Positions 2,591 through 26,295 of a stretch of DNA of 64,000 nt are shown here, piece by piece. The DNA comes from a virus: the IMG/VR virus record IMGVR_UViG_3300009320_000011, positions 1 through 64,000 of that record, one strand, 5' to 3'. A program made the translations under genes and the position numbers. A model generated the notes under the pieces. The model was not told where the DNA came from, did no database searches, and was given only the letters and a program-made list of their open reading frames with translations. Position 1 is the stretch's first letter, and every line of letters begins with the position of its first letter.

Positions 2591-2851
2591 ATGAAATTAT
2601 CAGAATTAAGACAAATAATAAAGGAAGAAATTAAATTTCAATTAGCCGAAAGAAAATCTTATCCAAAGGGAACAAAATCATACTATCAAGTGGATAATGT
2701 TGGGAAAGCAAAATATACTATTAATTTCCACGATGGGTCTAGTACACATAAAGATGGTAGTAAATTCTATGGTATAAAAATTTTAAAAAATAAAAAGGAT
2801 TTAGCGAATTTCATATCAGATTTATCAAAAAAGGGATATAAAGCTGAATAA
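2591..2851 (+). CDS. Leader-bearing small protein (MKLSELRQIIKEEIKFQLAE)
   Basis: 86 aa ORF with the shared leader. Confidence 0.7.
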   Translation: MKLSELRQIIKEEIKFQLAERKSYPKGTKSYYQVDNVGKAKYTINFHDGSSTHKDGSKFYGIKILKNKKDLANFISDLSKKGYKAE

Positions 2852-2870
2852 ATAATTAAGGAAAAATATT

Positions 2871-3449
2871 ATGACCAAATTATCAAAATTAATAAAAGAG
2901 TCTTGGTTAGAAGACAAAAAAGAAGAAACATCTAGCGACCAAAAAAAGGAATTTCTAGAAGCAGTATCTAAATTTCATGATTATGGAAAATCAATATATC
3001 GTGAACATGATCTAAAGGATGTAACGAAACAGATTGGTGAGTTAATAACTACTGCATCTGAATTAACAATATCCGAAAATGAGCGGGATGATGGCTGGTT
3101 CGATAAAATGACTATAAATCGCCATGTGAAACAACTTAAAGAGAGTTATAAGGTATTCGAAAAAACAGCAAAAGAGATGACTATACTGCAGAATAGATTA
3201 GATTCTTCATATGATACTATCGGCGAAGTGTTATCTAAATATTTTGAAATTAATGAACGGATTGATGATCAACTCAAAGAAGAAGATTCAGCATACCAAG
3301 AATTCTTCAAACAAGCATTAGCTAAATTTAAGGTTAGTTCACCAAATGATTTTAAGTCAGATGAAGCAAAGAAGAAGTTTTTTGACTACGTAGACCAAAA
3401 CTATAAATCGAAGAATGAATCCACAAAACTAAAATCATTAATAAAATAA
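2871..3449 (+). CDS. Hypothetical head-region protein (MTKLSKLIKE)
   Basis: 192 aa ORF, AAGGA upstream. Confidence 0.6.
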   Translation: MTKLSKLIKESWLEDKKEETSSDQKKEFLEAVSKFHDYGKSIYREHDLKDVTKQIGELITTASELTISENERDDGWFDKMTINRHVKQLKESYKVFEKTAKEMTILQNRLDSSYDTIGEVLSKYFEINERIDDQLKEEDSAYQEFFKQALAKFKVSSPNDFKSDEAKKKFFDYVDQNYKSKNESTKLKSLIK

Positions 3450-3829
3450 TGGATAAACTAACACCACTACTTAAAAAACTAAATATACCAGCGGGCATAC
3501 ATAGTAAAGTTACACAATTATTAGTATTCTTTGCTGCAAATCCACATTATTTGAATATAGTAATGAAACAACTAGGAGAATCAAAAATGGATGCAAATGA
3601 AAAACTAAGAAAATCAATCAGAGAAGAAATAAAAAATCAACTAAAAGAATACTCCTTCAAAGATTATGTTGTATCATACCAGGGAACAAGTATAGTAATT
3701 AAAAATGCATACAAATACTCAGATGATGAAAAAATGTGGAATAGTATATATGAAAAGCTTGCAACAATATCCTTAAACATAGCAAGACAAACAAAAGCAA
3801 AACCAAAAGAAATATCAATTACATTATAA
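3449..3829 (+). CDS. Hypothetical protein with internal leader copy (KLRKSIREEIKNQLKE)
   Basis: 126 aa ORF, TAATG coupling. Confidence 0.55.
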   Translation: MDKLTPLLKKLNIPAGIHSKVTQLLVFFAANPHYLNIVMKQLGESKMDANEKLRKSIREEIKNQLKEYSFKDYVVSYQGTSIVIKNAYKYSDDEKMWNSIYEKLATISLNIARQTKAKPKEISITL

Positions 3830-3840
3830 AAATAAGTTAT

Positions 3841-4119
3841 ATGAAAAAAAATGTAGAGAACAAAACCCATAGTTTCAAAAAATCAAAAATTAACGGCACT
3901 AAAGTCATCGTTAAAGACAACTCAGACCAGGCAATCGATTCAGCAATATATAGTTTTAAGAAACTGGTAAAAGACAGCGGTAAATTAAATGAGTTACGAG
4001 ATAGACAAGAATATTCAAAACCATCTAAAAATCGTAGAGAAACAATACAATATGCTGTCAGAAGACAAAAAAGACTGACAGAATATGAAAAATATATCGA
4101 TTCTCTGTCATATAATTAA
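3841..4119 (+). CDS. rpsU: Phage-encoded ribosomal protein bS21
   Basis: VIVKDNSDQAIDSAIYSFKKLVKDSGKLNELRDRQEYSKPSKNRR matches the bS21 pattern (V.V...IE.ALRRFKK...G.L.E.R.R..YEKPS..RR); lies between protease and scaffold. Confidence 0.85.
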   Translation: MKKNVENKTHSFKKSKINGTKVIVKDNSDQAIDSAIYSFKKLVKDSGKLNELRDRQEYSKPSKNRRETIQYAVRRQKRLTEYEKYIDSLSYN

Positions 4120-4272
4120 CAGATTTTCTATTTTTCTGATATGTATATATGATTGGTAATTCAATCAAGAAATACACTGTCCTACCTTTATATAGTGTTT
4201 ATAATTAATATTCCTATTATAGTTTTTCAATAACTATATTTCCTAAACTAAAAATAATTTTGGGAGAAAAAA

Positions 4273-5256
4273 ATGCCAAAGAAAAAACAATTATTAGACG
4301 AGGTTATTCTCGATGCTAAACTTGTCAGGGAAACAGCTCTTGAACAAGCCAGACTAGCACTTGAAGAAGCTTTTAAACCAAAGATTCAGTCGATGTTGTC
4401 TAAAAAATTACAACAAGAACAAGAAGACGAGGAAATCGAAGACGAAGAACTTCCAGTCGAAGATGAATTTCCAGTTGAAGATGAAATTGAAGATGAAGAA
4501 GAAGTAACTGAAGAAGAAGAAATCGAAGATGAAGAAGAAATTCCAGTTGAAGATGAAGAAGAAGAAACTGAAGATGAAATCGAAGATGAAGAAGAAGTAA
4601 CTGAAGAAGAAACAGAAATTGAAGATGAAATCGAAGATGAAGAAGAAATTCCAGTTGAAGATGAAGAAGACTTAGATTTAGAAGCCGTTATCAAAGAGCT
4701 TGAAGATGAATTAGATGAAGAAGAAGTTCCTCCAGTTGAAGATGAAGAAGAAGAAGTAACTGAAGAAGAAATTCCAATCGAGGATGAAGAAGAAGATGAA
4801 GAAATCGACATCGAAGAAATCATTAAAGCTTTGAAAGAAGAAGATGATGAAGAAGCAGAAGAAATGACTGAAGAAGATGCAGAAGAGGGAGTTGAAGAAT
4901 TAAAAACAGAACTCGAAGAAGCGTATAATGTAATTAATGAATTGAAAAATGAATTAAATGAAATCAATATGTTAAATGCTAAACTGTTGTACTCAAACAG
5001 ACTATTTAAGAAACACAATATGACTCAAAATCAGAAGATGAAAGTTATTGAAACTTTTGATAGAACGAATAGTATTCGTGAAATTAAACTTGTTTACGCA
5101 ACACTAGCAGAAACATTAAACAACACAACTAAAACAAGAAAAAACTTGAAAGAAAGTTTTGCATCTGATACCGTAAAATCAACGAAACCAACAAAAATCA
5201 TCAAAGATGAAGATTCGTTAGCATCAAGGTTCAGAGAATTAGCAAATCTTAAATAA
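4273..5256 (+). CDS. Prohead scaffolding/core protein, long Glu/Asp-rich middle
   Basis: Directly upstream of the capsid gene; acidic repeats (EDEEEVTEEE) and coiled-coil C-terminus. Confidence 0.8.
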   Translation: MPKKKQLLDEVILDAKLVRETALEQARLALEEAFKPKIQSMLSKKLQQEQEDEEIEDEELPVEDEFPVEDEIEDEEEVTEEEEIEDEEEIPVEDEEEETEDEIEDEEEVTEEETEIEDEIEDEEEIPVEDEEDLDLEAVIKELEDELDEEEVPPVEDEEEEVTEEEIPIEDEEEDEEIDIEEIIKALKEEDDEEAEEMTEEDAEEGVEELKTELEEAYNVINELKNELNEINMLNAKLLYSNRLFKKHNMTQNQKMKVIETFDRTNSIREIKLVYATLAETLNNTTKTRKNLKESFASDTVKSTKPTKIIKDEDSLASRFRELANLK

Positions 5257-5268
5257 TAGGAGAAATAA

Positions 5269-6918
5269 ATGAGTTTACAGAAAATTATGGAATCAACTAA
5301 AGTTTACGACAAGAAACTTCGTGACGAAACTGAAGTGTTGGTTTCAAAATGGAAAAGAACTGGTCTCATGGATGGTCTCGAGAAAACGAAATACGAAAAA
5401 TACTTCGTAGCTCAATTACTCGAAAATCAAGCCAAGCAATTAGTCGTTGAATCATCTAGGACTGGAACAGCATCAAACTCAGAGGAATGGTCAGGAGTAG
5501 CTCTACCGTTGGTACGTAGAATTTTTAGCGAAATAGCAGCTAAAGATTTTGTTAGCGTTCAACCAATGAGCCTACCATCAGGACTAGTATTCTGGGTAGA
5601 CTTCAAATACGGAACTGGGCAACCAGGATTCACTACAGGATCTGGTAAAGATTCTGAAGCTGACTCTGTATTTGGTATAACAGGAACCATCGGATCTGAC
5701 GCAAGTCAAGGTCTTTATGGAGCCGGCAGATTTGGTTATTCAATCAATGAAGCTGATACAGCAAATCTTGTAACAGGATCAACACCATCATCAACAGAAG
5801 TTGCTACTGCATCTATTGCTGCAGCTGACTATAATTATGATACGTCATTCTCACAGTCATACGCAGGACAATTTGATAGTAGCGCAACTGCTGGTATGTT
5901 TAAGATAACAATGGCGTCGTCTTCAATGACTAATCCAGACTTTGAAGGTATTCGTGCATATAAAATTCGTGGACCTGGTATTTCAACATACTTCCCACAA
6001 TTTACAGTAGCCAATTCAAACAATTCACAGATATCGTTTATTATATCTGGGTCTCAATCATCGTTTAATGGTGGTGGTATTGCTGTAACATACCATAAAC
6101 AACCAACTGATATTACTCGTGGTGACTTTGAAGCTACATCTGATACGGACATCAATATTCCGGAAATCAACGTAGAAATGAAATCTGAACCTATCGTAGC
6201 TAAAACGAGAAAACTAAAAGCTATCTGGACTCCTGAATTCGCACAAGACTTAAATGCATATCACTCAATTGACGCTGAAGCTGAACTAACATCAATGTTA
6301 TCTGAGTACATCTCAATGGAAATTGATCTTGAGATTTTGGATATGTTGATCAAAAATGCAGCAACAACTGAACGTTGGTCAGCACAAATCGGTAGATATT
6401 ATGATAACGCAGCAAGTGCATTCGTTGATTATGCAACGGCTCAAGCACAAGCAGCAGCATTTAACCAAGGAACATGGTTCCAGACTCTGGGAACAAAAAT
6501 CCAGAAGGTATCTAATAAAATCCATCAAAAAACAATGCGTGGCGGAGCGAACTTCTTAGTTTGTTCACCTGAAGTAGCAACTGTTCTGGAATCAATCCCA
6601 GGATATTCAGTTGACACTGACGGCGATAAACCACAATTCGCGATGGGCGTACAGAAAATTGGTCAAATCAATAACAGGTTCCAAGTTTATAAAAATCCAT
6701 ATATGTTAGAAAATACAATTCTTCTAGGATATCGTGGATCACAATTCTTGGAAACAGGAGCTGTTTTTGCACCATATATTCCGTTGATTTTAACTCCATT
6801 AGTATATGATCCTAACAACTTTACTCCAAGACGTGGAGTTATGACACGTTATTCGAAGAAGTTGATTAGACCGGAATTCTACGGAAAGATACATGTAACT
6901 GATCTACCAAACGTGTAA
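5269..6918 (+). CDS. gp23: Major capsid protein (T4 gp23-like)
   Basis: LPLVRR, VSVQPMSLPSGLVF, AKTRKLKAIWTPEFAQDLNAYHSIDAEAEL, APYIPL, GVMTRY. Confidence 0.96.
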   Translation: MSLQKIMESTKVYDKKLRDETEVLVSKWKRTGLMDGLEKTKYEKYFVAQLLENQAKQLVVESSRTGTASNSEEWSGVALPLVRRIFSEIAAKDFVSVQPMSLPSGLVFWVDFKYGTGQPGFTTGSGKDSEADSVFGITGTIGSDASQGLYGAGRFGYSINEADTANLVTGSTPSSTEVATASIAAADYNYDTSFSQSYAGQFDSSATAGMFKITMASSSMTNPDFEGIRAYKIRGPGISTYFPQFTVANSNNSQISFIISGSQSSFNGGGIAVTYHKQPTDITRGDFEATSDTDINIPEINVEMKSEPIVAKTRKLKAIWTPEFAQDLNAYHSIDAEAELTSMLSEYISMEIDLEILDMLIKNAATTERWSAQIGRYYDNAASAFVDYATAQAQAAAFNQGTWFQTLGTKIQKVSNKIHQKTMRGGANFLVCSPEVATVLESIPGYSVDTDGDKPQFAMGVQKIGQINNRFQVYKNPYMLENTILLGYRGSQFLETGAVFAPYIPLILTPLVYDPNNFTPRRGVMTRYSKKLIRPEFYGKIHVTDLPNV

Positions 6919-6947: not shown

Positions 6948-6977
6948 AAAAAGACGGTCATATGACCGTCTTTTTTT
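6948..6977 (+). terminator. Rho-independent terminator after capsid gene
   Basis: AAAAAGACGGTCA-TA-TGACCGTC followed by T7. Confidence 0.9.
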
Positions 6978-7070
6978 ATGCTCTATTGAAAATATAATGG
7001 TTATTTCTTGTATCTATTAATTATTTTTTGTATATTTATATGTGAGTACACCAATAATTGGAGTGAAATT

Positions 7071-8846
7071 ATGAAAAATAAATGTAAAATTTGCGGAAAA
7101 GAAATATTAAAACATAGGATATATTGTTCAAATGCTTGTAAGTTTTCTGACGATGAATATAATAAAAGTAGGTCAATTAAAAAGGAAAATGATGGAAGTA
7201 ATGAAATGCGATGTACTATATGTGGATGGCAAACACTAGATATATATAATTATGGTGGACATTTAGCGACGCATTTAAGAAAAAAACATGATATACTTGA
7301 TAAAAATTACAATTTATATTATAACAAAATATCAGTACCGCTAAAGGATGTATTTAAGTGTCCATACTGTGATTGGAAAACAAATGATATAATTAATAAA
7401 TCTGGAGCATTTACAAAGCACTTAATTAATGAACATAAAAAAAATATATTTGATTATATAAAAGAATACCCCGACCACGATAAATTATTTGTTAAATATG
7501 TTAAAAAAACTAATTATGATGAGTTTATAGCTGATGATGCGCGGAATGGTATTAAGTGTGAAGTGTGTGGAAAATATTTTAAGAAAATATCAAATTCACA
7601 TCTAAAACACCATAACATGTCGCCGCAGGAATATAAAGATAAATATAATATAGTAAAAACTACATCAAACACAACTTCATTAATACAATCTACCAAAACT
7701 AAAAAACACAATGCGCGCATGATGAAGTATTATCAAGATAATAATATTCCAATGCCGTGGCATTCTAGTGAAGTATATACCAAAAAAGTACAAAGTAAAT
7801 TTGAAGATTATAAAACCAAACTTGGAGATGAATTTACTATATGTTTTGATTATAATACATATTGGCATGGGAGTGTATTTCAATTTATATGTGTGAAGTG
7901 TGGAAATAGTTTTGATAGCGGATATAGGTATCCACGATGTTATGTATGTAATCCACCGTCATCTGGAGTGAGTGATGAAGAGAAAGAACTTCAGAAATAT
8001 ATTCGAGATGATTTGAAAATAAATATAGAATGTAATAATAGAAAATTAGTTAAACGAACTGAAGTTGATATATATATACCAAGTATGAATATAGGAATAG
8101 AATATGATGGGCTATATTATCATTCAGAATTATCTGGTAAGAAGGACAAAAACTACCACATTGAAAAGACTTTCAAATTATCTAATTGTGGAGTTAAATT
8201 AATTCATATAACTTCCGATGAATGGCTAAATAAGCAAACCATAGTTAAAAATAGGATAAAACATATGTTAGGTGTAACTGATAGTAGTATACATGCTAGA
8301 TTGTGTGATATTAAAGAGATTGATTCAAAATTAAAAAATAATTTTTTGAATAATAATCATATACAGGGAGGTGATAATAGTAGTATTAAAATAGGAGCGT
8401 TTTATAATAATGAATTGGTTGCTGTGATGACTTTTGGTAGCTTGAGGCGAGCATTGGGTAGTGAAAAAAAAGACAACGAATATGAAATGGTTAGATTTTG
8501 TTTGTCTGATCATAAAATAACTGGCATTTTCGGAAGGCTTTTGGGGTATTTTGTAAATAATTATAATCCATTAAAAATAATAACTTATAGTGATATACGC
8601 TGGTCTCCAGATAAATTAAATAATGTTTACGTTAAAAATAATTTTAAGTTAATTTCTCAGACTCCTCCAAACTACTGGTATATGAGTGGTTATAAATCTA
8701 GATTACACCGATTTAATTTTACAAAGCACCGCATAGTTGAAAAACACGGAGGTGATCCAACTTTATCCGAGTGGCAAAATATGCAGTTAATGGGATACGA
8801 CCGAATCTGGGATTGCGGATCATATAAATATGAGTTTATAGTATAA
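7071..8846 (+). mobile_element. Free-standing homing endonuclease (Zn fingers + Vsr-like PD-(D/E)xK + conserved C-terminal domain, Hef-like)
   Basis: CxxC/C2H2 repeats, EVDIYIP..IGIEYDGLYYHS, C-terminal IWDCG; ATG at 7071 after GGAG preferred over the TTG at 7008. Confidence 0.75.
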
Positions 8847-8852
8847 TTTCTC

Positions 8853-8885
8853 TTTGAAAATTCAACTATTCTTTGTATATTCGTA
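8853..8885 (+). promoter_or_regulatory. Bacteroidota-type sigma-A promoter (-33 TTG / -7 TATATTCG); similar sites at 9713-9743, 16548-16578, 35918-35947, 39337-39367, 53959-53989
   Basis: Six intergenic sites with TTG then 19-20 nt then TATATT(C/T)(G/A), matching the known TTTG / TAnnTTTG consensus. Confidence 0.65.
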
Positions 8886-8899
8886 AAAAACCAAATCAC

Positions 8900-9706: not shown

Positions 9707-9778
9707 AATTTCTTGTTTCTTTCAAGAATTAGTATTATATTCGTACTGTAAATTAGTAATATAGTGGAAGATAAAAAT

Positions 9779-9871
9779 AATGTTTCATTAATCTGTGATA
9801 CGCATCTTACGAATCGAGAGAGATTGCAACTTGTGGATCGTCGATATGGAGATAACAATGACTGAAAAAAT
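9779..9871 (+). repeat. 93-bp exact copy of 12704-12796 (gp14-like 3' end plus start of next gene)
   Basis: Identical sequence AATGTTTCATTAATCTG...ACTGAAAAAAT; near-identity continues ~28 bp further. Confidence 0.95.
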
Positions 9872-9917
9872 TAGAGAAATAATTAGAGAAGAAATTAAAT
9901 TCAGTAAAACCAAATAA
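9858..9917 (+). pseudogene. Leader-only mini-ORF MTEKIREIIREEIKFSKTK
   Basis: Manual translation; GGAG upstream. Confidence 0.55.
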
Positions 9918-9918
9918 T

Positions 9919-11512: not shown

Positions 11513-11935
11513 ATGATAAAATTAAAACAAATATTAGAGTATGGAGAAACTCTTAAAGCTTTGCATAAAGCATCATCCACAAAAGAGATTGAAGCACTTA
11601 AGAAAGACATAAGAAAGGATTCAGGCTGGAGTAATAGTGATATTGATTATATGTTGAGAAAATATAGAAAAGACATAAAATATAAAGGACCGGATATATA
11701 TCAACCACCACCAAAAACTGTTCCAGTTAAAAAAATACAATGGAATGATTCAAAATATAAGAAATGGATTAAAGACTCAGCATCTGGTGGTGGAAAATAT
11801 CATTCATATGATATGGCACAGAATGCAAAAATGGAGCATGGTTTATTGGATTTTGTAAAGAAAAAAATTAGAAGAGAATATGGTGATGAAACGCCTTTAG
11901 AAAGAATTCAATGGGATATTGAAGCTCATATATAA
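11513..11935 (+). CDS. Leader-bearing hypothetical protein (MIKLKQILE)
   Basis: In-frame ATG at 11513. Confidence 0.55.
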   Translation: MIKLKQILEYGETLKALHKASSTKEIEALKKDIRKDSGWSNSDIDYMLRKYRKDIKYKGPDIYQPPPKTVPVKKIQWNDSKYKKWIKDSASGGGKYHSYDMAQNAKMEHGLLDFVKKKIRREYGDETPLERIQWDIEAHI

Positions 11936-12287: not shown

Positions 12288-12790
12288 TGCTCTGGGGATC
12301 TGATCGGGATGTGAGCTTCATTAAAAAAATTAATGAAGAATTAATAACAGATGTTATTGATACCGAAGTTGCGGTATATAAACTTATTGTCGGACAATCA
12401 GGAAAAAATGTATATGATGAATCTGGTGGCAAAAATAAATCGTATTATTATCCAATTAAAATATCATGTCTGATCAAACGAGATGTACAGCAATTTGAAT
12501 CAGACGAATTTGGTGTCAACTATAAAGCAGCTGGTAGATTTGCATTCTTACGTGATACGTTAGTTGAAAAATCATTATATGTTGAAGTGGGTGATATAAT
12601 CGAATGGGATAATGAATTTCATGAAATCGATACAGTTGAAGAAAATAAATATTTTGTAGGCAAAAATACAGAAACAGATCTAGGCGGAAATACGCATGGA
12701 TACAATGTTTCATTAATCTGTGATACGCATCTTACGAATCGAGAGAGATTGCAACTTGTGGATCGTCGATATGGAGATAACAATGACTGA
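12287..12790 (+). CDS. Head completion/neck protein (gp14-like)
   Basis: NVYDES, VEVGDIIEWDNEFHEI; between gp13-like and gp15-like genes. Confidence 0.65.
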   Translation: MLWGSDRDVSFIKKINEELITDVIDTEVAVYKLIVGQSGKNVYDESGGKNKSYYYPIKISCLIKRDVQQFESDEFGVNYKAAGRFAFLRDTLVEKSLYVEVGDIIEWDNEFHEIDTVEENKYFVGKNTETDLGGNTHGYNVSLICDTHLTNRERLQLVDRRYGDNND

Positions 12791-13001
12791 AAAAATAAGA
12801 CAAATAATTAGAGAAGAAATCAAAAAAGCAATCAACGAAGGATCAGCCATAAATAAAGCAGATAATGAGATATATCGTGGTCTAACTGAATTAAGAAAAG
12901 CAATTATGAAAGAGAAACCCGAGGCTATAGAGGAATTTAGAAAGATAAAAAAGGCGGTAGATAAAGCATTGTCTAATTTTTATCAAAAATATGATTTATA
13001 G
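12783..13001 (+). CDS. Leader-bearing small protein (MTEKIRQIIREEIKKAINE)
   Basis: ATG at 12783 after GGAG. Confidence 0.7.
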   Translation: MTEKIRQIIREEIKKAINEGSAINKADNEIYRGLTELRKAIMKEKPEAIEEFRKIKKAVDKALSNFYQKYDL

Positions 13002-14433: not shown

Positions 14434-14658
14434 ATGAAAAAATCTGAATTCCGAGAATTAATACGAGAAGAAGCTAAGAAACAATTAAATGAATACGCAC
14501 TAGATGCATCACATAGACGCTTAAATGAATCTATAAAACATTATGTTAAAGAATACCAAAGTGCGTTCGGTGATGAATTTTTACATGAAGGAATAGCACA
14601 GTCATTAAAAAGATTCGTACCAGCAGACCAAGTTAAAAAGATAAAAGAATATTTATAG
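14434..14658 (+). CDS. Leader-bearing small protein (MKKSEFRELIREEAKKQLNE)
   Basis: 74 aa ORF. Confidence 0.7.
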   Translation: MKKSEFRELIREEAKKQLNEYALDASHRRLNESIKHYVKEYQSAFGDEFLHEGIAQSLKRFVPADQVKKIKEYL

Positions 14659-16538: not shown

Positions 16539-16629
16539 ATGCAAAACTTGTTTTTCTCAACTAATAGTATTATATTCGTACTACAATACTTTCTTAATTT
16601 TCTTATATTTATACTAAAGTGGAGCATAA

Positions 16630-16908
16630 ATGAAATTGAAGGATATTCTCAGAGAATCAAAAGAACGAATAATAGCTAATGACATATCAGATTACTGGAG
16701 AACACATATTGGCAAATGGTCTCCAATATTATTCAAATCAAAACTAGAAAAATATATAGATGACGTACTACAATATCACAGCGTAACATCAGATGATTTA
16801 CCAAAAAAAGTAGCTGACTACTGGTTTAATAAACTGCATGGTACAACAAATGAAAATTCCATAAAACAAAAGATTAGAAGCTTTATTGAAAAGGAGCTAA
16901 AAAAATGA
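16630..16908 (+). CDS. Leader-bearing small protein (MKLKDILRE)
   Basis: First gene of leader array 1. Confidence 0.65.
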   Translation: MKLKDILRESKERIIANDISDYWRTHIGKWSPILFKSKLEKYIDDVLQYHSVTSDDLPKKVADYWFNKLHGTTNENSIKQKIRSFIEKELKK

Positions 16909-17123
16909 AAAGATCAGAACTAAGAAAATTAGTACGAGAAGAAGTTAAGAAAGCGCTTTTAAAAGAAAATGCTAAAGAAAAACTGATAGATAAATTACTA
17001 AACACAAAATATGCGGACGATGATCCAAAATACGATCAATCAAATTATAAATATCTAAATAGTTTGCCTATTCAGAAGTTGAAAAAGATGATCGACGACT
17101 GGGATGATTATGAAGAAAGATAA
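16905..17123 (+). CDS. Leader-bearing small protein (MKRSELRKLVREEVKKALLKE)
   Basis: 72 aa ORF, AAGGAG upstream. Confidence 0.7.
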   Translation: MKRSELRKLVREEVKKALLKENAKEKLIDKLLNTKYADDDPKYDQSNYKYLNSLPIQKLKKMIDDWDDYEER

Positions 17124-17126
17124 TAT

Positions 17127-17282
17127 ATGAAAACATCTGAATTCCGAAAATTAGTACGAGAAGAAATTAGAAAAGAATTAAAATAAGTGGAGTAAAACAA
17201 TTATGAAACGATCAGAATTAAAACAAATATCAAAAAGTTAATTGACAAATGGTCAACTGACGTAAAAAAGAAAGGTATTTAA
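17127..17282 (+). pseudogene. Two leader-only remnants: 17127-17186 MKTSEFRKLVREEIRKELK and 17203-17241 MKRSELKQISKS
   Basis: Manual translation. Confidence 0.6.
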
Positions 17283-17287
17283 ATAAA

Positions 17288-17614
17288 ATGAAACGAAGAA
17301 AGATAATATATGAATCAGAACTAAAACAACTAATTCGGGAAGAAATTAGAAAGCAATTAAGTGAAGTAAATTTAGACAATAATCAAAAGCTTGAATTAAT
17401 TAAAAAAGAAAAGGGATATATCGAATTTCGGGGCCAAAAAATGGAAATCATCTCAGTGAGAAATAAATTAATATTTTTTGATAATGGTTCGACTTTACAA
17501 GACATATATCCAGAAGCTTTAACTCTTTCAGATAAAAAGTATAAAGGCAAAAATGTTTGGAAACTGAGTTTGGACAAAGCATTCCAGAAACATTATCTAT
17601 ATAATATAAGGTAA
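17288..17614 (+). CDS. Leader-bearing small protein (ESELKQLIREEIRKQLSE)
   Basis: 108 aa ORF. Confidence 0.7.
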   Translation: MKRRKIIYESELKQLIREEIRKQLSEVNLDNNQKLELIKKEKGYIEFRGQKMEIISVRNKLIFFDNGSTLQDIYPEALTLSDKKYKGKNVWKLSLDKAFQKHYLYNIR

Positions 17615-17666
17615 AAACATTTGGATTTGGAATGCAGGATTCAAAATAAATGGGAGTAATAACATT

Positions 17667-17699
17667 ATGAAACGATCAGAACTAAAACAATTTAGTTAA
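17667..17699 (+). pseudogene. Truncated leader remnant MKRSELKQFS
   Basis: GGAG upstream; near copy of the 17189-17230 start region. Confidence 0.55.
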
Positions 17700-17744
17700 A
17701 AAATTAAAAGGCTGGAAATATAAACTAGTATCAGGAAAAATCAT

Positions 17745-18005
17745 ATGAAAAAATCAGAACTAAGACAAATCATAAAAGAAGAGATTATAAAAGAGTTGAA
17801 TGAATTTAATTGGCCACAATCGAAATTGAGTCCAATATTTGTCAATCATTTAAAAACTGAACTTGATTCTAAATTTCGTGGATATGATATATATGGGAAA
17901 GGATATGACATATATGTAGATGGCATAAAAATAATGACTGTGAATCCAGATAAAGACTCAGTTAATACTATAGTTCAAAAAATAAAACAAACACTGGGAA
18001 AATAA
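17745..18005 (+). CDS. Leader-bearing small protein (MKKSELRQIIKEEIIKELNE)
   Basis: 86 aa ORF. Confidence 0.7.
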   Translation: MKKSELRQIIKEEIIKELNEFNWPQSKLSPIFVNHLKTELDSKFRGYDIYGKGYDIYVDGIKIMTVNPDKDSVNTIVQKIKQTLGK

Positions 18006-18007
18006 CT

Positions 18008-18256
18008 ATGAAAAAATCAGAATTAAGACAAATCATAAGAGAAGAAATCAAAAGTATTCTAAAAGAGAGCTATAAAATTGATACCGACTCAGCATCTGAT
18101 GCTGATAAAATAAAAGATATACTAAGGAAAAAGAAAATTAAATTCAAACAAACTGGATCTATAATTACAATTATGTTAAATAGAAAATCAGCACAATCAT
18201 CTATGATAAATTCACAATTTGATAAGATTGTTGGCAACCATTGGAAAGAGATATAA
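18008..18256 (+). CDS. Leader-bearing small protein (MKKSELRQIIREEIKSILKE)
   Basis: 82 aa ORF. Confidence 0.7.
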   Translation: MKKSELRQIIREEIKSILKESYKIDTDSASDADKIKDILRKKKIKFKQTGSIITIMLNRKSAQSSMINSQFDKIVGNHWKEI

Positions 18257-18259
18257 TTT

Positions 18260-19141
18260 ATGAAAAAATCAGAAATAAGAAAAATAATTAAAGAGGAAAT
18301 CAAAATTGCTATACGTGAATCTAATATTCCCAGCAATATCGAAAAATGGATTAAGCAACGTGGACCAGAAACTACTAGAGATGTTAGAACGATAGGCAAT
18401 TGGGTGAAAAAAATTACAGGTCACGGAATTTCTGGTGGGACTGCAATTGGGAAAGGATATGATACTCTCGTACTAGACATTAAATACCAAGATGCTGCTA
18501 TTTATTATGATACTTATGAAGGAACAATAAAATTATATGGAAAAAAGGTCGTTGGATTTCAAGAATTCAAAAGAGTATTTCAATATTACAACACTAAATT
18601 AACTGAATCCAAAATCAAAAAAGGTGATATCGTAAAACCAAAAATTGGTCCACACAAAGGACTAAAACATAAAGTTATCCATGATTTTGGTAATGGTAAA
18701 TATAATATACAGCCAATCGGATTGAAACCAAAACAAATAAGATATAGATTGGGAGCTGCTGGAGCAAAAGAACAAGATTTGGAATTAGTGGAATCAAAAG
18801 AACCAATTTTAGAGAAAGAAGATATAACCCCACAAGACGGACAATATCTAAGTTTCAGTGATGCAGATAGAAATATTAGACCAATTTGGGTAAAGGGTAA
18901 AAAGATTAAGGTTGGAAACAAAGGAAAAGCACCATATGCTGTTATAGGAAAAAAGAAAGATAAACTTCAATTTATAGGCAATTATTTTTATGTTGATATT
19001 GATAACATAAAACAAAGAGGAACAATATCTGGTAAACCGGCTTGGATACTAAAAAATTATAAGAAAGCAATCAATGGAAAAGACTTAGAAGCAAAATTAC
19101 TCAATCGAAGCGGTGATTTTGTATATTATATAAATCTATAG
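18260..19141 (+). CDS. Leader-bearing multi-module protein (MKKSEIRKIIKEEIKIAIRE; internal LTE-S, LVE-S)
   Basis: 293 aa ORF. Confidence 0.7.
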   Translation: MKKSEIRKIIKEEIKIAIRESNIPSNIEKWIKQRGPETTRDVRTIGNWVKKITGHGISGGTAIGKGYDTLVLDIKYQDAAIYYDTYEGTIKLYGKKVVGFQEFKRVFQYYNTKLTESKIKKGDIVKPKIGPHKGLKHKVIHDFGNGKYNIQPIGLKPKQIRYRLGAAGAKEQDLELVESKEPILEKEDITPQDGQYLSFSDADRNIRPIWVKGKKIKVGNKGKAPYAVIGKKKDKLQFIGNYFYVDIDNIKQRGTISGKPAWILKNYKKAINGKDLEAKLLNRSGDFVYYINL

Positions 19142-19143
19142 AT

Positions 19144-19323
19144 ATGAAACTAAAACATCTCATAGAATCTGATCCGCAAACATATAAACGATTATCATAT
19201 GTCCGAGCGAGCATTGGTAATATAAGGCGAACACTTCGTCAAATAGACTGGACGAAAGCAACTGATAATGAAAAACGAGAAATCAAAAGAACGATACAAC
19301 AGTTAGTTCAAATTATAAAGTAG
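19144..19323 (+). CDS. Leader-bearing 59-aa protein (MKLKHLIE-S...)
   Basis: Manual translation; below the ORF-track cutoff. Confidence 0.6.
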   Translation: MKLKHLIESDPQTYKRLSYVRASIGNIRRTLRQIDWTKATDNEKREIKRTIQQLVQIIK

Positions 19324-19330
19324 GAGAAAT

Positions 19331-19554
19331 ATGAAAAATCAGAATTAAGACAAATCATAAGAGAAGAAATTCAAAAAGCATTAAATGAAATTTCTAGATT
19401 ATCATTTCGAGAATGGTTTGCTGAAAACAAAAATTCAGATGAGCTAACACATATGTATAATGATTATAAACACGAACAAAAACAAATGGGACTTAAAGCA
19501 GATCCATTCATTAAATGGGCTAAAGAATACTTCAAGTCTGTAATAGATAAATGA
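19331..19554 (+). pseudogene. Leader-bearing gene with a 1-nt deletion in the A-run after ATG (restored: MKKSELRQIIREEIQKALNE...)
   Basis: ATGAAAAATCAG here versus ATGAAAAAATCAG in paralogues; frame otherwise open to TGA 19552-19554. Confidence 0.65.
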
Positions 19555-20153
19555 AAAATCTACTAAAAATACTACTAATAGTACTTCTTACATCATGTGC
19601 AACATTAACATATGATTATGATGATGTATATTATACTACAGAGCAAACCGTTAATTTTATACCTGGAATATATCAATACTATACTCCACCACTAATATTC
19701 TATTGGGACTATACGTATTCCGGATGGCAGTATAATTTATATTGTAATTGCTATCAGTATTATAGTTGGTATTCATGTCGTTGGTATAATTATTATTGGA
19801 TATACAATCAATATCCAAGATGGTATGCATACAATCACTATTATGGAAGACGCTATTCACCAATGCCGAATCATAAAAGACAGGTTCAAAAAATTACAAC
19901 ACCAAACCAAAGACCAGTAACATCAAATAAAAGACAAATCATACCAAAACAAAGACCATCAAATAATCGAACTAGACAAATCACACCAAAACGAAGACCA
20001 CCAACTTACCAAAATTTTACACCAAGAACTCAATCAAATAAAAATAAATCACATATATATAATAGAAGCACACCACAAAGAAGAAGTGAACCACAAAGAA
20101 TTAATCCAATACGAACTGCACCAAAATCAAAAATAGGAGCTAGAAGAAAATGA
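19551..20153 (+). CDS. Predicted lipoprotein, Tyr/Trp-rich middle and Arg/Pro/Gln-rich tail
   Basis: Signal peptide with lipobox LLTS-C; DDVYY motif. Confidence 0.7.
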   Translation: MKNLLKILLIVLLTSCATLTYDYDDVYYTTEQTVNFIPGIYQYYTPPLIFYWDYTYSGWQYNLYCNCYQYYSWYSCRWYNYYWIYNQYPRWYAYNHYYGRRYSPMPNHKRQVQKITTPNQRPVTSNKRQIIPKQRPSNNRTRQITPKRRPPTYQNFTPRTQSNKNKSHIYNRSTPQRRSEPQRINPIRTAPKSKIGARRK

Positions 20154-20371
20154 CCGAAATCAAACAAAAAATTAGAGACATGATTGCGGAGGAAATCAAA
20201 AATTTCAAATCAATCAAAGAAGCAACCACTGAAAAAGTGGATGGAATTCTTGTCGTAACAAATTCAAACGGATCAGTTGAACTGCATTTACCACAAGGTA
20301 TGAAAGGCGTAGAGCTTAAGAAATGGTTAGCAAAACATCCAGACATAGATAAGAAGTGGTCTAAGAAATAG
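20150..20371 (+). CDS. Leader-bearing small protein (MTEIKQKIRDMIAEEIKNFKSIKE)
   Basis: 73 aa ORF, AGGAG upstream. Confidence 0.65.
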   Translation: MTEIKQKIRDMIAEEIKNFKSIKEATTEKVDGILVVTNSNGSVELHLPQGMKGVELKKWLAKHPDIDKKWSKK

Positions 20372-21827
20372 TCAATAAGAATTTATAGTTACCACAATCC
20401 CAGAATCTCTTATATCCATTATTATACATATTAGCGACTTCAGTTAGGAGAGGATCAAAATTCTCCAACCGGTCCTTTAATTTATGTTTCTGAAATACTT
20501 GTCGATTATATATATTTAAGGCATTCTTAAAATAATAGTAATTTGGTTTGGTAGCATTAATTAATTTGAATCCATTTTTGGTGTATAAATCACCGATACT
20601 AAAACATCTATCAGCATATGATAAGATGTTTTTTGGTGCGTAGTTTTTTATAAAATGGGATAACATTTTTGAGAATCCACCCGTAATAGTTGTGAACAAT
20701 TCAGATGAATATCTGGTTAGTTCCCAATCGTAGTTTTTATCAAATCTCGATTTATTAAAACAAATCATAGATACTAATATATCGTCATAATATAATCCAA
20801 TATTTATTGAGGTATTACAATTACCTTGCAGGTGAGTTCTATCTAAAAAATCTTTTTTATCTTTAGCGGATACTAGTTTGATGATACATTTTCTTGCATA
20901 TATTCTGGTATTCTTATTTAGTTTAGAAGATAATATAGACTTTACAATATCTTGTTTTAATATCCACTGGTGGGAGAATATATGTATTAACTGAATGCCC
21001 TTAAAAGCGCATTTTTTTGTTTTATTAATGTGGTATTTTTCATCTATAAATAGATTTGAATGCCAATATAATCCATCATGCTCTACTCCAATATTGTGAT
21101 CCGGAAGGAGTATATCTATTTCAAACCCATTTAATATTTTTCTATCATTTCGAATTATTGGAATATTAAAGTTGGATAAATATAATGCTATCTCATCTTC
21201 TGGTTTTGATTTATTTGAACTAGATGACTTAGAGCACATTCTACAATGTGGTATATATCCATCATCTAAACAAGCTTTTATTTTATAACCACATACGGCA
21301 CACTCAAAGTCATATTGCACTCTGGTTGAAACACCATTTTTTTCAAAGAAATCTTTATCAAATAATGGAGTGATATGTTTCCAGTTTAATACTTGATCAT
21401 ACTTTTTTAATCTTCTGGCCATAAAATTATTGTACCCACGACTGCCATATCTTTTTAATTTTGTTTCCATCATCTTTTTTGGGTTGCTGTAATTTAGATT
21501 ACCATATCGATCTAATTTTGTTTTATTTATCTTTGATATAATTTCATCAGAATGGAACGGAGAATCAACGCCATATCGCTCTATCATGGTCTGCTTGTAT
21601 TTATCTTTAACATCAGGATGGTTGGTATAATGCACGCCACCATACTTAGTATCTACTGTATTTTTCATTGAATTATTTTTTTTGTTTATTTCAATTGGTG
21701 ATGTGTTCGAACATTTTTTACTACAATATAATTTTGGTCTTTTTTTATTGATTTCAAATGTGTTACTGCAATCTGGATGACTACATAATCTAATTTCATA
21801 CAAATCATTGTTCTTTTTTCTTGGCAT
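20361..21827 (-). mobile_element. Free-standing homing endonuclease, same family as 7071-8846
   Basis: EIDILLP..IGVEHDGLYWHS, IYARKC, FWDCG; only convincing minus-strand gene in the window; ATG at 21827. Confidence 0.75.
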
Positions 21828-21948
21828 AATAATTTTGTTTTGGTTTGAATACAACTATAATTATATCTTTTTTATTAAATAAATACAAGAAATAAAAAAA
21901 AGTTATATTTATACTAAACAAAGTACAACAACAAAAAAGGAGAATAAA

Positions 21949-22525: not shown

Positions 22526-23403
22526 ATGCAACAATTTCAATGTAAAATATGTAATAAAGAATTTGAATCATATGATTCTTTACGTCGTCATTCGGGAAAT
22601 GTTCACAAAATTAAGTCTGAACAATTTAATGTCGACTTTTACCACAACGGAATCCATCCGACTTGCAAATGTGGTTGTGGAGAAGAAACAAATTTCAATG
22701 GTCGCGGCTTTAAAGATTATAAGCGGGGACACATAGCCAGAATCCATAACAACTGGGGACATAACCAGAAAGCAATAGATAATTCATCTAATACAAGACG
22801 CGAACAATTCAAATCTGGCGAACGAATCCAATGGAATAAAGGAAAATCATGGGACGAAACATTCAGTAAAGAAGTACAAGAAAAATTGTTGAATGATCTA
22901 AGAGATCCAGTTCGATGCAAAAAAATATCAAAATCACACACCGGCAAAAAACATTCAGAAGAACATAATAAGAATAATGCCGCTTCAGTTAAAAAAGCTT
23001 GGGAAAATCCAGAGTTGAGAGAAAAACAGAGATTCAATAGGATCGAATATTTTACAAAACATAGAAAAATAGCAAAACAAAATTAGAAGAAGTGTTTTGT
23101 AAAATATTAGATGACATGGGAATAGATTATTATTTTCAATATGCAGTTGATGGATATTTATATGATTTTAGGATTAAGAATCAAAATATATTGATCGAGG
23201 TTGATGGTGATTGGTACCATTGTAATCCAGAAAGAGGAATTATACCGGAATATGCTATTCAGAAACATACAGTGGAACATGATTTGGTAAAAGATAAAGC
23301 AGCTAAAGATAATGGTTATACCCTACTTCGTTTCTGGGAAAATGACATAAACAACAATCGAAAAAATGTTATAAAAGAGCTAATTAAAAACATTTATTTT
23401 TGA
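22526..23403 (+). mobile_element. Homing endonuclease (Zn finger/NUMOD3 + DUF559/Vsr-like), frameshifted near 23065-23070
   Basis: CKCGCG, HTGKKHSEE in ORF 1; YDFRI..ILIEVDGDWYH, LLRFWE in ORF 2; one extra A joins them. Confidence 0.7.
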
Positions 23404-23427
23404 TATTTATACTAAAGTGGAGCATGT

Positions 23428-23688
23428 ATGAAAAAATCAGAATTTCGAAAATTGATCAGAGAAGAAGTCAAATCAATACTTAAAGAGGGAGCTGACTGGA
23501 TTGTATTAGATTCTATACATTCTTTAATTGATAGTTATACTCTAGCAATATATCCAATGGTTAATGGTAAAATCAATATACACGTTGAAGTTGAGCCAGG
23601 AACTAAAGATTATAATATGTTGATCAAGAAATTAGATTCCAAAGATCGTAAAATATACACATCAGTTAAAAAAGAGGCAGGAAAATAA
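23428..23688 (+). CDS. Leader-bearing small protein (MKKSEFRKLIREEVKSILKE)
   Basis: First gene of leader array 2. Confidence 0.7.
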   Translation: MKKSEFRKLIREEVKSILKEGADWIVLDSIHSLIDSYTLAIYPMVNGKINIHVEVEPGTKDYNMLIKKLDSKDRKIYTSVKKEAGK

Positions 23689-23689
23689 A

Positions 23690-23953
23690 ATGAAAATATC
23701 AGAACTAAGACAAATGATAAGAGAAGAATTAAAATTATTTGAAGCATCACAAGCAACATGGGAAGTCATATTTGATGATTTGAATTTAAGTGGATTTGAT
23801 TTTCCACGTGGAGTAGAATTGCGTAGAAAAAATAAATATAAAGTTAAAGCTAGAGGAACTGATGAAGCAATTAGAAAAGCAGCCAAAGAAGCTGGTGTAA
23901 AAGGCAATGGTTGGATGGCAGTTGATGTATATTCTGTGAAAAAAATGGGTTAA
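23690..23953 (+). CDS. Leader-bearing small protein (MKISELRQMIREELKLFE)
   Basis: 87 aa ORF. Confidence 0.7.
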   Translation: MKISELRQMIREELKLFEASQATWEVIFDDLNLSGFDFPRGVELRRKNKYKVKARGTDEAIRKAAKEAGVKGNGWMAVDVYSVKKMG

Positions 23954-23958
23954 AAATT

Positions 23959-24477
23959 GTGAAAAAATATACCATATATCGTGGATGGCATTATGCATTT
24001 TTTCTAATCGGAAGATTATTCGGATGGCACTATAATAAGAAAAAATTCAAAATTACATTTAAGGTAGACCAAGATGGGTATTGGGAACCACCTCGTAATT
24101 ATGATGATTATGATCTAAATAAGGTATCAGGACTAACTTTTGGATTATTTGGCATTCATGAAAATAGCGTACGGCTAACATCTGTTCCAGATTTTGATAC
24201 TAAAAATATTTTGGATATATATGGATATACATATGATTCATCTATAAAAGAGCATACTGCTAAAATATTATGTAGTATAACATGTGGTATAGAACAAGTA
24301 GCAATAGTAGAATTACATGAGAAGCATTATTATTTTTTATTGAATGGTCGTGTATTAAAAATGAATAATAAAACACCAGACCCAAAACTCCAAAAAGAGA
24401 ATTATCCATTTCATGGTGGAAATAATACAGCACCAAATACATATAGAGTTTGGACAAAAGTAGAGGTAATAAAATGA
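23959..24477 (+). CDS. Hypothetical protein (no leader)
   Basis: 172 aa ORF, GTG start. Confidence 0.55.
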   Translation: MKKYTIYRGWHYAFFLIGRLFGWHYNKKKFKITFKVDQDGYWEPPRNYDDYDLNKVSGLTFGLFGIHENSVRLTSVPDFDTKNILDIYGYTYDSSIKEHTAKILCSITCGIEQVAIVELHEKHYYFLLNGRVLKMNNKTPDPKLQKENYPFHGGNNTAPNTYRVWTKVEVIK

Positions 24478-24986
24478 AAATATCAGAACTAAGACAAATA
24501 ATACGAGAAGAAATCAATCTTCAGTTAAATGAGAAAAATATAAAAACCCAAAAGTGGAATAAAGTACAGAGTTGGGAGACCACACCAAAAGGTGTTCCAC
24601 CAAAATATGAAGCCGACCAGATATTATTTAAAATTGAAGATGATAAAGGAAAAATAAAAGAATCATTAATAAGAGAAGCTAGTCTTGATGGCGAAATCCA
24701 GAAAATGCTTAGAACATTAGCAAAAATTAAAGCCGATCCAAATAGGGAAGAATATGTAATAGATGTTGGTGAGTGGACAAGACACCCAGCAAATTTAATG
24801 GTTACTCTGAATTACAGAGATAAAAAAATGAATAATAAAATGAAATTTCAACCATTACTTGCGTTTCCAAAAAAATTAGATATATATAAGGTTGTTAGAA
24901 AAACACTAACAAAATTAGAGAAGGCGGGTTATTCTATTAATATAGGTGGCGGTGAAAAAAATCTTATAAAATATACATTAAAATAA
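24474..24986 (+). CDS. Leader-bearing protein (MKISELRQIIREEINLQLNE; internal IKE-SLIRE-A)
   Basis: ATG at 24474 after GAGG. Confidence 0.7.
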   Translation: MKISELRQIIREEINLQLNEKNIKTQKWNKVQSWETTPKGVPPKYEADQILFKIEDDKGKIKESLIREASLDGEIQKMLRTLAKIKADPNREEYVIDVGEWTRHPANLMVTLNYRDKKMNNKMKFQPLLAFPKKLDIYKVVRKTLTKLEKAGYSINIGGGEKNLIKYTLK

Positions 24987-24997
24987 GGAGAAACAAA

Positions 24998-25153
24998 ATG
25001 AAAAAATATATTATACCAGCATGCATTTATGCAGCAATAATAGGATTACTAATATTTACAATTGTTGAAAAGGCGTGGGTTGGAACTGGAATATTTAGTG
25101 CAGCATTACTAGGATTCTCAGGATTTTTATTTTACAAATCAAAACAGAAGTAA
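24998..25153 (+). CDS. Small two-TM membrane protein (51 aa)
   Basis: AAGGAG upstream; MKKYIIPACIYAAIIGLLIFTIVEKAWVGTGIFSAALLGFSGFLFYKSKQK. Confidence 0.65.
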   Translation: MKKYIIPACIYAAIIGLLIFTIVEKAWVGTGIFSAALLGFSGFLFYKSKQK

Positions 25154-25156
25154 AAA

Positions 25157-25456
25157 ATGGAATTAAGTAAAATAGCTAGAGAATTAATTAAAGAGGATGC
25201 ATCTACTCTAATAGATTTGAAAAAAATAGCAAAATTAATACAAGCAAAAACCAATGGTAAACTAAAATATATATCAAATTTACGTAATTCTGTTAAAGTA
25301 TCAATAATGGGAAACGATGATATATTAGAAAAAGTATCTAGGAAAGGTGTGTATAGAATAAAAAAATTGGGATTTGTAGATACGCCAAAATATTTGATAG
25401 ATTTGGTAAAAGATTATAGTCCTCCAAAAGGCGGAACTCAATCTTCACAATTTTGA
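25157..25456 (+). CDS. Leader-like small protein (MELSKIARELIKE)
   Basis: 99 aa ORF. Confidence 0.6.
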   Translation: MELSKIARELIKEDASTLIDLKKIAKLIQAKTNGKLKYISNLRNSVKVSIMGNDDILEKVSRKGVYRIKKLGFVDTPKYLIDLVKDYSPPKGGTQSSQF

Positions 25457-25474
25457 AAAGTAGAGGAAAATGAT

Positions 25475-25996
25475 ATGAAACTAAAAAATCTAATTATAGA
25501 AGCATTACCATCCAGCATAACAGATAAGTATTCTCTGCATGATTGGAGACATTATTTAAGACAACTGGGACTAAAGCCATGGCATATTAAAATAACACAA
25601 AATGGGTTTGAAGCTAGTTTAAGTTCTGCTAGTAAAAATAAACCAAACTTAAGTGATTTTACACAAGTAAAAGGTAGTTGGGTTAGACTATCTTTTAAGG
25701 ATGTACATAATAAAAAAATAACAAAATCATTATATGCTCTATTTCAACCCATAAAAGAAGAAACCGGTCTAACTAAAATATTTGATAAAACTGTATCTGA
25801 ATATAAGGAACTTCTTGTAAAACAAGAGAAGATAAAAAAGGAATATTTATCAAAATCACCAGAAGAAAAAGCAAAAGCTAAAGATGCTTACATAAGATCA
25901 ATTAAAAAAATCAATAATGATATTAAAAAAGCTGAAGTTAAATTAAATAGCGCGATAATAAATTTAAGAGTTCCGGCGGAGGATGAATTATTATGA
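25475..25996 (+). CDS. Leader-bearing protein (MKLKNLIIE)
   Basis: 173 aa ORF. Confidence 0.65.
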   Translation: MKLKNLIIEALPSSITDKYSLHDWRHYLRQLGLKPWHIKITQNGFEASLSSASKNKPNLSDFTQVKGSWVRLSFKDVHNKKITKSLYALFQPIKEETGLTKIFDKTVSEYKELLVKQEKIKKEYLSKSPEEKAKAKDAYIRSIKKINNDIKKAEVKLNSAIINLRVPAEDELL

Positions 25997-26295
25997 AATT
26001 AAAAAATTTACTTAAAGAAGAAAAACTGGCTGAAGCAACTCAAAAGGCATTTGGAGGCATAAAATTCAATGTTAGATTTTATCCAAAAGATAATATTATT
26101 AATTTTACACAAGTAAATTCAAGAGATAACCCAGATGAAAGTAAAATAAAATCTGAAATATCAACGTATCTAAATAAAAAATTAAATTTGAAAATTAATG
26201 CCCCCAGATATCCAATAAAATCACCAATATCAGGAATCAATTTCAAATTATATGACAATGACATCGAAGAACTAATACTTCGACAATTAAAATAA
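25993..26295 (+). CDS. Leader-bearing protein (MKLKNLLKE)
   Basis: 100 aa ORF. Confidence 0.65.
   Translation: MKLKNLLKEEKLAEATQKAFGGIKFNVRFYPKDNIINFTQVNSRDNPDESKIKSEISTYLNKKLNLKINAPRYPIKSPISGINFKLYDNDIEELILRQLK

Follow-up and report, generated by a model that had tools for sequence, protein, structure and literature searches.

Two N-terminal leader classes on 23 genes of a viral contig resemble the capsid-targeting propeptides of phage T4

A 64,000-nt stretch of the IMG/VR virus record IMGVR_UViG_3300009320_000011 (positions 1 to 64,000, hereafter the window) was found to carry a set of 23 genes whose products begin with one of two short N-terminal leaders and share little else. Fourteen of them open with a long leader of about 20 residues and nine with a short one, and four leader-only remnants were found in addition. 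An earlier note on this DNA, made from the sequence alone, had put the family at about 25-30 members, which is slightly more than could be recovered. The window covers the first 64 kb of a contig of 75 kb and ~30% G+C from an uncultured, T4-like marine phage; nearly every gene lies on the plus strand. That a leader can direct proteins to the capsid has been known from phage T4 since the 1990s. We consider it probable that both leaders are propeptides of the T4 capsid-targeting sequence (CTS) type and that the contig encodes the T4 capsid-loading system enlarged to ~23 genes, whereby core binding, cleavage, packaging, ejection and any effector role are what we infer. The new elements are the 20-residue leader class, the number of genes and the support for joints within polyproteins; the mechanism itself is not put forward as new.

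The long leader is a 20-residue helix of the form MK(K)SE(L/F)(R/K)x(I/L)I(R/K)EE(I/V)xxx(L/I)xE that opens 14 plus-strand genes between 2.6 and 25 kb, a count obtained by reading gene starts and by scanning with a 22-column leader profile. A strict pattern for the leader core matched at 12 places from 2603 to 24486, all on the plus strand and all at the starts of open reading frames (ORFs). The profile matched at 17 places in the 75-kb contig (E 3e-12 to 6e-3), again exclusively on the plus strand and between 2.6 and 24.5 kb. All copies named in the earlier note were present, namely those at 2591, 12783, 14434, 16905, 17288, 17745, 18008, 18260, 19331, 20150, 23428, 23690 and 24474, as well as the one inside ORF 3449, which starts at Met 3587 with an AGGAG 8 nt upstream. 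With the exception of this 3587 copy, every intact copy begins at the initiator Met or at most 9 residues from it. The leader of gene 20150 is degenerate. That of gene 19331 is frameshifted, having A5 after the ATG compared with A6 in the other copies, and the leader and a 54-aa cargo resume in the next frame; no contig across this A-run was found in four marine DNA runs, which gave short pieces only, and the frameshift may be real or an artefact of assembly. The leader-only remnants are located at 9858-9917, 17130-17189, 17203-17241 and 17667-17699. In an AlphaFold2 (AF2) model of the product of gene 18260, the leader forms a helix at residues 3-19. The leader class matched no Pfam or PHROG family, and no description of it was found in the literature searched.

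The short leader is of the M(I)KLKxxLxE type and is found in nine genes, with a length of 8-15 residues that accords with the 10-19 of T4. Among the eight positions proposed earlier for a short form, it was clear at 16630, 19144, 25475, 25993 and 11513 (M(I)KLK type) and at 2871, and weaker at 1446 and 25157; a duplicate at 1228, inside ORF 1072, is a weaker case like 1446. The leaders at 1228 and 1446 belong to a 64-nt direct repeat (1208/1426) that is 92% identical and includes the ribosome-binding site. Of the 60 genes in the remainder of the contig, 11 (18%) likewise had a bare [LI]xE ending at residues 8-15, so that this loose criterion is not specific. The stricter form M..K[LI]..[LI]..[LI]xE occurred in seven of the 45 genes within the first 27 kb (including 12783, which has a long leader), versus none of the 60 genes beyond. 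Neither leader was detected in those 60 genes, nor anywhere in the other 48 kb of the contig. A terminal L/I-x-Glu closes 23 of the 24 tabulated window leaders, and the exception, 11937, is excluded from the 23 leader genes.

The endings of both leaders resemble those of the T4 internal proteins (IPs). In T4, gp21 cuts after L/I-x-Glu and the IP propeptides are 10-19 residues long, with targeting influenced by residues 4 and 7 of the CTS and processing by residues 8 and 10 (PMC9026906). T-even internal proteins are diverse and have the CTS alone in common (Rao and Black, PMC3012670). IPII and IPIII open with MKTYQEFIAE/A, and the IPI propeptide comprises 19 residues ending in ITE/A. The hydrophobic positions are Y4, F7 and I8 in T4; in the short leader, L4, I/L7 and L8 precede E10, and in the long leader, I/V14, V/I/A/L17 (80%) and L/I/V/M18 (79%) precede E20. 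A hydrophobic-x-x-hydrophobic-hydrophobic-x-Glu pattern is common to the T4 CTS, the short leader and the C-terminal seven residues of the long one, although this is a pattern match only, and the middle hydrophobic position is Q or A in some window copies. Homology between the T4 CTS and the window leaders is not demonstrable, the CTS being too short. IPI, IPII, IPIII and Alt of T4 are like the window genes in carrying an N-terminal leader on unrelated, mostly basic proteins and in their variable gene content (PMC3012670, PMC9026906); the L/I-x-Glu ending followed by a small residue, the hydrophobics 7, 4 and 3 positions before the Glu and a Peptidase_S77 protease are likewise found in both. 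However, such proteins number three or four in T4 and ~23 within 27 kb of the window contig. T4 has nothing that corresponds to the 20-residue MKKSELRQIIREEI...LxE leader, two leader classes coexist in the window, and the leader genes are arranged in arrays inside the tail and head clusters, unlike those of T4.

Compared with those of other phages, the major capsid protein of the contig showed identities of 61% with Microcystis phage Mel-JY01, 52% with Flavobacterium phage vB_FspM_immuto and ~31% with pelagiphage HTVC008M and jumbo phage XacN1. The distribution of the leaders was followed in IMG/VR. A degenerate DNA pattern covering only codons 1-14 of the long leader retrieved at least 119 contigs, with up to four copies within a few kb, and the pattern MIKLKD(I/L)LxE for the short leader retrieved at least 120 contigs, with matches at ORF starts and diverse cargo. 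Some 270 leader proteins were assembled in total. In 161 long-leader ORFs, the leader came first and was followed by diverse sequence, and the 137 distinct proteins of this sample fell into 113 similarity groups, 98 of which were singletons. Columns 15-20, which the search pattern left free, nevertheless kept K16, [VIAL]17, [LIV]18 and E20 among 136 non-redundant ORFs, and in the same set the information content was ~0.1 bit from column 22 onward. An [LIVMF]xE ending at residues 17-26 was found in 123 of the 136, with A, S or G as the next residue in 48% of those. Head or tail genes of the same lineage occurred in 44 of the 119 long-leader and 54 of the 120 short-leader loci listed, the protease being the commonest such marker at short-leader loci (25 among those listed). 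Leader genes occupied almost the whole of the sheath-tube and tube-baseplate gaps in relatives. When ten long contigs were tested for Peptidase_S77, the domain was present in both contigs that were at least 90% complete, and the five without it were fragments of an estimated 21-50% completeness. Among cultured phages, blastn of the leader DNA gave credible matches for the immuto phages only (E 3e-4); rows from Polaribacter, Flavobacterium psychrophilum, Lactococcus and others were rejected as short chance matches inside unrelated genes. The long-leader profile matched twice in vB_FspM_immuto (MW353176, at about 102.25 and 113.14 kb), a phage in which additional N-termini resembled the short leader. 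A tblastn search of the phage collection with a leader protein gave no match, probably as an effect of the low-complexity filter.

The sequences diverge completely after the terminal Glu, as had been claimed: an all-against-all BLASTP of the mature parts gave a best E of 0.002 in a database of 24 sequences. No Pfam or PHROG family scored above threshold for any cargo, so the cargo proteins are not members of the IPI, IPII or IPIII families and would only work like them. For the suggestion that they are anti-defence or host-takeover proteins no support was obtained, because no cargo matched a known family or a fold of known function. The cargo in the window is basic, with a median isoelectric point of 9.5 and 17 of 24 proteins above 8.5, versus 14 of 38 other small proteins. 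Gene 24474 had no homolog in a set of 5.8 billion proteins, and protein-atlas look-ups for 24474 and 25475 returned no usable match. The AF2 model of the largest cargo protein, 18260, had a mean predicted local distance difference test (pLDDT) score of 69, and of 84-94 in its two domains at residues 25-115 and 124-178. A Foldseek search of this model against the PDB returned weak KOW/Spt5/L24-type rows only, none at E 0.001 or better, and one against BFVD returned a single match, an uncharacterised phage protein. A signature of a KOW/SH3-like small beta-barrel (GxxVxxGxFKNKK, KKGDIVxPxxGPHKG) was noticed both in gene 1072-1431 and in residues 124-178 of 18260.

The predicted cleavage motif is not confined to the leaders. 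The protease gene of the head module encodes a gp21-type enzyme that aligns to the T4 gp21 structure 5jbl (E 3.7e-14) and retains the GELDHP His and SRGIGS Ser motifs, and it is presumed to be the leader-removing enzyme. An [LIV]xE followed by a small residue likewise marks the site where the capsid protein is predicted to mature, the two ends of the scaffold and the joints of polyproteins. In ten capsid proteins of the lineage, ENQAKQ[LI][IV]xE followed by [ASG] is conserved in front of a variable stretch and a VALPLVRR block, and alignment to mature T4 gp23 placed this site upstream of the mature N-terminal region. The scaffold proteins of relatives conserve LLKE/A near the N-terminus and two [LIV]xE sites ([IV][IL]xE) near the C-terminus. 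Within the scaffold gene, positions 4417-4910 form a long imperfect GAA/GAT-rich repeat array that encodes an Asp/Glu-rich core of ~150 residues, the length of which varies among relatives. A complex prediction for the scaffold (as an alignment) with the leader protein 18008-18256 returned a score of 0.00, which we read as 'no answer' and as evidence neither way.

Cargo and leader also behave as separable units. A cargo starting with xDIIPVGPDGN stands behind three different leaders, among them the long leader and MTPDKFKQLLKEF...LQE, and its homology begins directly after the Glu. A cargo homologous to that of gene 2591 stands behind a leader in another locus (L023), and the homolog of gene 1072-1431 in a further locus (L150) has a short leader, whereas the window copy has none. 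The homologs of 18260 are mosaics of at least two modules. Module A was preceded by [LIV]xE 3-4 residues upstream in 11 of 11 occurrences (background 0.11), whether a leader or another module came before it, and module B in seven of 12 (background 0.21); these homologs are not independent and binomial figures are therefore overstated, but the flanks differ while the motif stays. In 18260 itself, the [LI]xE sites at residues 20, 116, 178 and 185 all fall at domain borders of the AF2 model.

Most leader genes of the window are organised in two arrays. The array between the sheath and tube genes also holds the remnants at 17130, 17203 and 17667 and one leaderless, lipoprotein-like gene (19551), and the array downstream of the tube gene includes two leaderless genes, 23959 and 24998. 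The neck, sheath and tube genes, like the leading gene of either array (16630 and 23428), are preceded at 25-71 nt by the sequence ATAT[AT]TATA, often as ATATTTATACTAAA, with the promoter-like ATATTTATACTAAA at 16604 in front of the first array. The sequence has 17 plus-strand copies, 11 of them intergenic; intergenic copies stand at 10323, 14126, 14649, 16605, 21905, 23403, 27374, 45087, 46957 and 53983, at 12-71 nt before start codons. This ATATTTATA-type motif is a candidate late-type promoter of the lineage. The canonical T4 late promoter TATAAATA was considered and rejected: its 15 plus-strand copies are always inside genes and never intergenic, indicating that it is not used as in T4. 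Two similar terminators, each a hairpin with a T-run, lie directly downstream of the capsid (6949-6981) and sheath (16510-16542) genes. The arrangement fits co-expression of the arrays with the structural genes, with a presumably late timing.

If both leaders are CTS-type propeptides, the following sequence of events may be envisaged. Late in infection, the arrays would be transcribed from a type of promoter that they share with the genes for tube, sheath and neck. Through its hydrophobic residues 7, 4 and 3 positions before the terminal Glu, the amphipathic leader would bind the assembling scaffold core, and the attached protein would thereby become enclosed in the prohead. The gp21-type protease would then cut after [LIV]-x-Glu, taking off the leader and separating the modules of multi-domain cargo. 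The mostly small, basic products would remain in the head with the DNA and would probably leave with it at infection.

Several observations weigh against this interpretation. For the long-leader proteins, cleavage and packaging are inferred, although the earlier proposal of a capsid-targeting, protease-removed leader has gained several independent sequence-level results. The long leader, at 17-26 and mostly 20 residues, lies at or beyond the known T4 range of 10-19 (PMC9026906). The [LI]xE motif is common in proteins so rich in K, E, I and L, 18% of unrelated N-termini having one at residues 8-15, and basic proteins make up no more than half of the cargo in the wider IMG/VR sample. A conserved N-terminal helix on diverse domains would be expected to break off sharply in any role, and G, S, N and D commonly cap helices. 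The placement of the genes is also less telling than it had appeared. The earlier note's statement that all members lie in the virion module stood within the window but failed in G006, a complete syntenic relative of 181 kb, where leader genes are also located at 51 kb among replication genes and at 100-103 kb before the terminase gene, and where seven consecutive MIKLKDILxE genes form an array at 165-169 kb. Confinement to the virion module is therefore no rule, and the argument from placement, being weak, was dropped.

The strongest alternative, which we regard as unlikely, is that the leader stays on the mature proteins as an N-terminal amphipathic helix serving oligomerisation, stability or binding to a common partner such as DNA, a host protein or the tail. 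In its favour, the helix predicted for residues 3-19 has one hydrophobic face, many arrays lie between sheath and tube and not beside head genes, and G006 has leader genes outside the virion module. A retained helix nevertheless leaves unexplained why the conserved block always stops at [LIV]xE, why this motif recurs where the capsid protein is predicted to mature, at both ends of the scaffold and where internal modules meet, and why two unrelated leader classes have the same hydrophobic-x-x-hydrophobic-hydrophobic-x-Glu ending.

The leaders are at the same time sites of clear turnover. In addition to the remnants, the frameshifted copy and the 64-nt repeat, a 35-nt stretch is identical between 18013 and 19335, and a duplication of 121 nt (9779-9899 and 12704-12824, 98% identity) comprises the first 40 nt of 12783 and 80 nt upstream of it. 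Contigs from marine metagenomes share only a leader segment of ~40 nt, with unlike flanks. These marks might suggest that the leader is mainly a DNA-level recombination handle, a 60-nt stretch for swapping, duplicating or losing cargo cassettes, with no targeting role for the peptide. However, the leader copies are only 64-80% identical in DNA, and one third of the residues identical between copies use different codons, indicating that selection acts on the leader peptide; moreover, the DNA upstream of the ATG is unconserved apart from the ribosome-binding site. We therefore hold this explanation to be improbable, and recombination at the leaders is better seen as a by-product of a CTS system than as a substitute for it. 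Recognition of the leader by another enzyme, either a maturase like those of ribosomally synthesised and post-translationally modified peptides (RiPPs) or a protease of host or phage that has no part in building the head, is very improbable: the window genes from 191 to 27141 that were scanned against Pfam contained no maturase domain, be it radical-SAM, cyclase or another type. Their non-structural neighbours encode homing-endonuclease-like proteins, a zinc-finger protein and a purine nucleoside phosphorylase, and the S77 protease is the only enzyme repeatedly found beside leader genes.

Related arrangements are known from other large phages. The giant phages phiKZ (gp175), 201phi2-1 and SPN3US have many virion propeptides cut after Glu by a gp21-related protease, some multi-site or polyprotein-like proteins, and paralogous sets packaged in the head (PMC9026906). 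They differ from the window in the short motifs before the Glu, in their longer propeptides and in the lack of a single common leader, and they are not close relatives. In the Agrobacterium jumbo phage Atu_ph07, for which a gp21 homolog is listed (Table S3, PMC6102473), gp53-gp63 were all detected in purified virions by electrospray ionisation tandem mass spectrometry (ESI-MS/MS; Table S5, PMC6102473). Translation of the deposited genome (MF403008, 39.5-50.6 kb) showed that these eleven consecutive genes all start with M(R/K)WxQL(T/N/I)E, a common start not mentioned by the authors (PMC6102473). Leader-marked proteins are virion components in this distant, cultured, far-T4-like phage. The parallel is limited by points that count against applying it to the window, as the Atu_ph07 cargo consists of ~30-kDa paralogs of one family, the leader is different and N-terminal processing is unreported.

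If the leaders act like the T4 CTS, virions of a common marine lineage would hold a payload that greatly exceeds the T4 model in size and changeability, and the opening minutes of infection would be under the influence of proteins that current annotation fails to recognise. The leader would also provide a simple sequence handle for listing such proteins in metagenomes, and it is a candidate tag with which selected proteins could be brought into phages that infect Bacteroidota-type hosts. As a tentative extension, an abundant marine far-T4 lineage might possess a plug-in system for loading the virion, in which two interchangeable address peptides, a T4-like one of 10 residues and one of 20 residues whose last seven mimic it, ship dozens of fast-turning-over orphans and protease-jointed polyproteins to the next host. 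The leaders might perhaps set the amount, place or release time of each cargo, the cargo might represent a large, unexploited pool of injected anti-defence or takeover proteins, and the leaders might serve as a packaging tag for phages of hosts other than coli.

Table 1 Coordinates of leader genes, leader arrays and neighbouring features in the window.
Feature	Position	Strand	Details
Prohead core protease, T4 gp21 family	1950..2579	+	Pfam Peptidase_S77, E 4.3e-27
Major capsid protein, gp23-like	5269..6918	+	T4 gp23 structures, E 7e-29; predicted maturation site VVE61/S62
Scaffold, gp22-like, acidic repeat core	4273..5256	+	just 5' of the capsid gene
Two genes 5' of the protease, duplicated MENKIPKLKDI(I/ML)KE leader	1228 inside ORF 1072-1431; 1446-1937	+	
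Long-leader gene, 86 aa, directly 3' of the protease	2591..2851	+	profile E 3e-10
Short-leader gene MTKLSKLIKE/S (predicted cut after E), acidic, conserved beside the protease	2871..3449	+	
Long-leader gene from an internal Met of ORF 3449-3829	3587..3829	+	profile E 2.3e-4; own Shine-Dalgarno
Leader-only remnant, 19 codons, made by the 121-nt duplication	9858..9917	+	
Short-leader gene MIKLKQILE/Y (predicted cut after E)	11513..11935	+	
Long-leader gene, MTEKIRQIIREEI variant	12783..13001	+	profile
Long-leader gene, 74 aa, just 5' of the sheath gene	14434..14658	+	profile E 6.8e-12
Leader-gene array between sheath and tube	16630..20371	+	short: 16630, 19144; long: 16905, 17288, 17745, 18008, 18260, 19331, 20150
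Largest cargo gene, 293 aa	18260..19141	+	leader, domain A, KOW-like domain B, disordered tail
Leaderless 200-aa gene in the array	19551-20153	+	lipoprotein-type signal (…LLTSC), Tyr/Trp/Asn-rich middle, basic Pro/Arg/Gln-rich repeat tail
Second leader-gene array, after the tube and homing-endonuclease genes	23428..26295	+	long: 23428, 23690, 24474; short: 25157, 25475, 25993
Ribosomal protein S21 gene	3841-4119	+	Pfam Ribosomal_S21, E 1e-8; between protease and scaffold genes, inside the head module
Apparent insertion between capsid and neck genes	7008-9917		612-aa ROS/MucR zinc-finger + MTES_1575 endonuclease-like gene, purine nucleoside phosphorylase
DUF7487 gene, sole sizeable minus-strand gene	20361-21854	-	C-terminal part related to gene 7008
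C2H2 zinc-finger gene, then DUF559/MTES_1575 endonuclease gene, after the tube gene	22526-23403	+	

The gene order from 0.2 to 39 kb starts with core-protein genes, the prohead protease (1950-2579), the ribosomal-protein-S21 gene, the scaffold (4273) and the capsid (5269). Next comes an insertion that holds genes for a homing-endonuclease-like protein and a purine nucleoside phosphorylase, and then the neck genes and a gp15-like gene (13229), the sheath (14720), the tube (21949), the baseplate (26323) and the remaining tail genes, with replication genes from 39 kb. The acidic gene 2871 has a homolog of 46% identity in G006, likewise beside the protease. The insertion after the capsid gene terminates in the copy of 12704-12824 at 9779-9899, which carries one of the leader-only remnants. 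The genes at 20361-21854 and 22526-23403, which flank the leader arrays, probably represent elements of the homing-endonuclease type. Mel-JY01 has a gene for ribosomal protein S21 in the same position as the window, and the C2H2 zinc-finger gene after the tube gene is kept at this place in many relatives.

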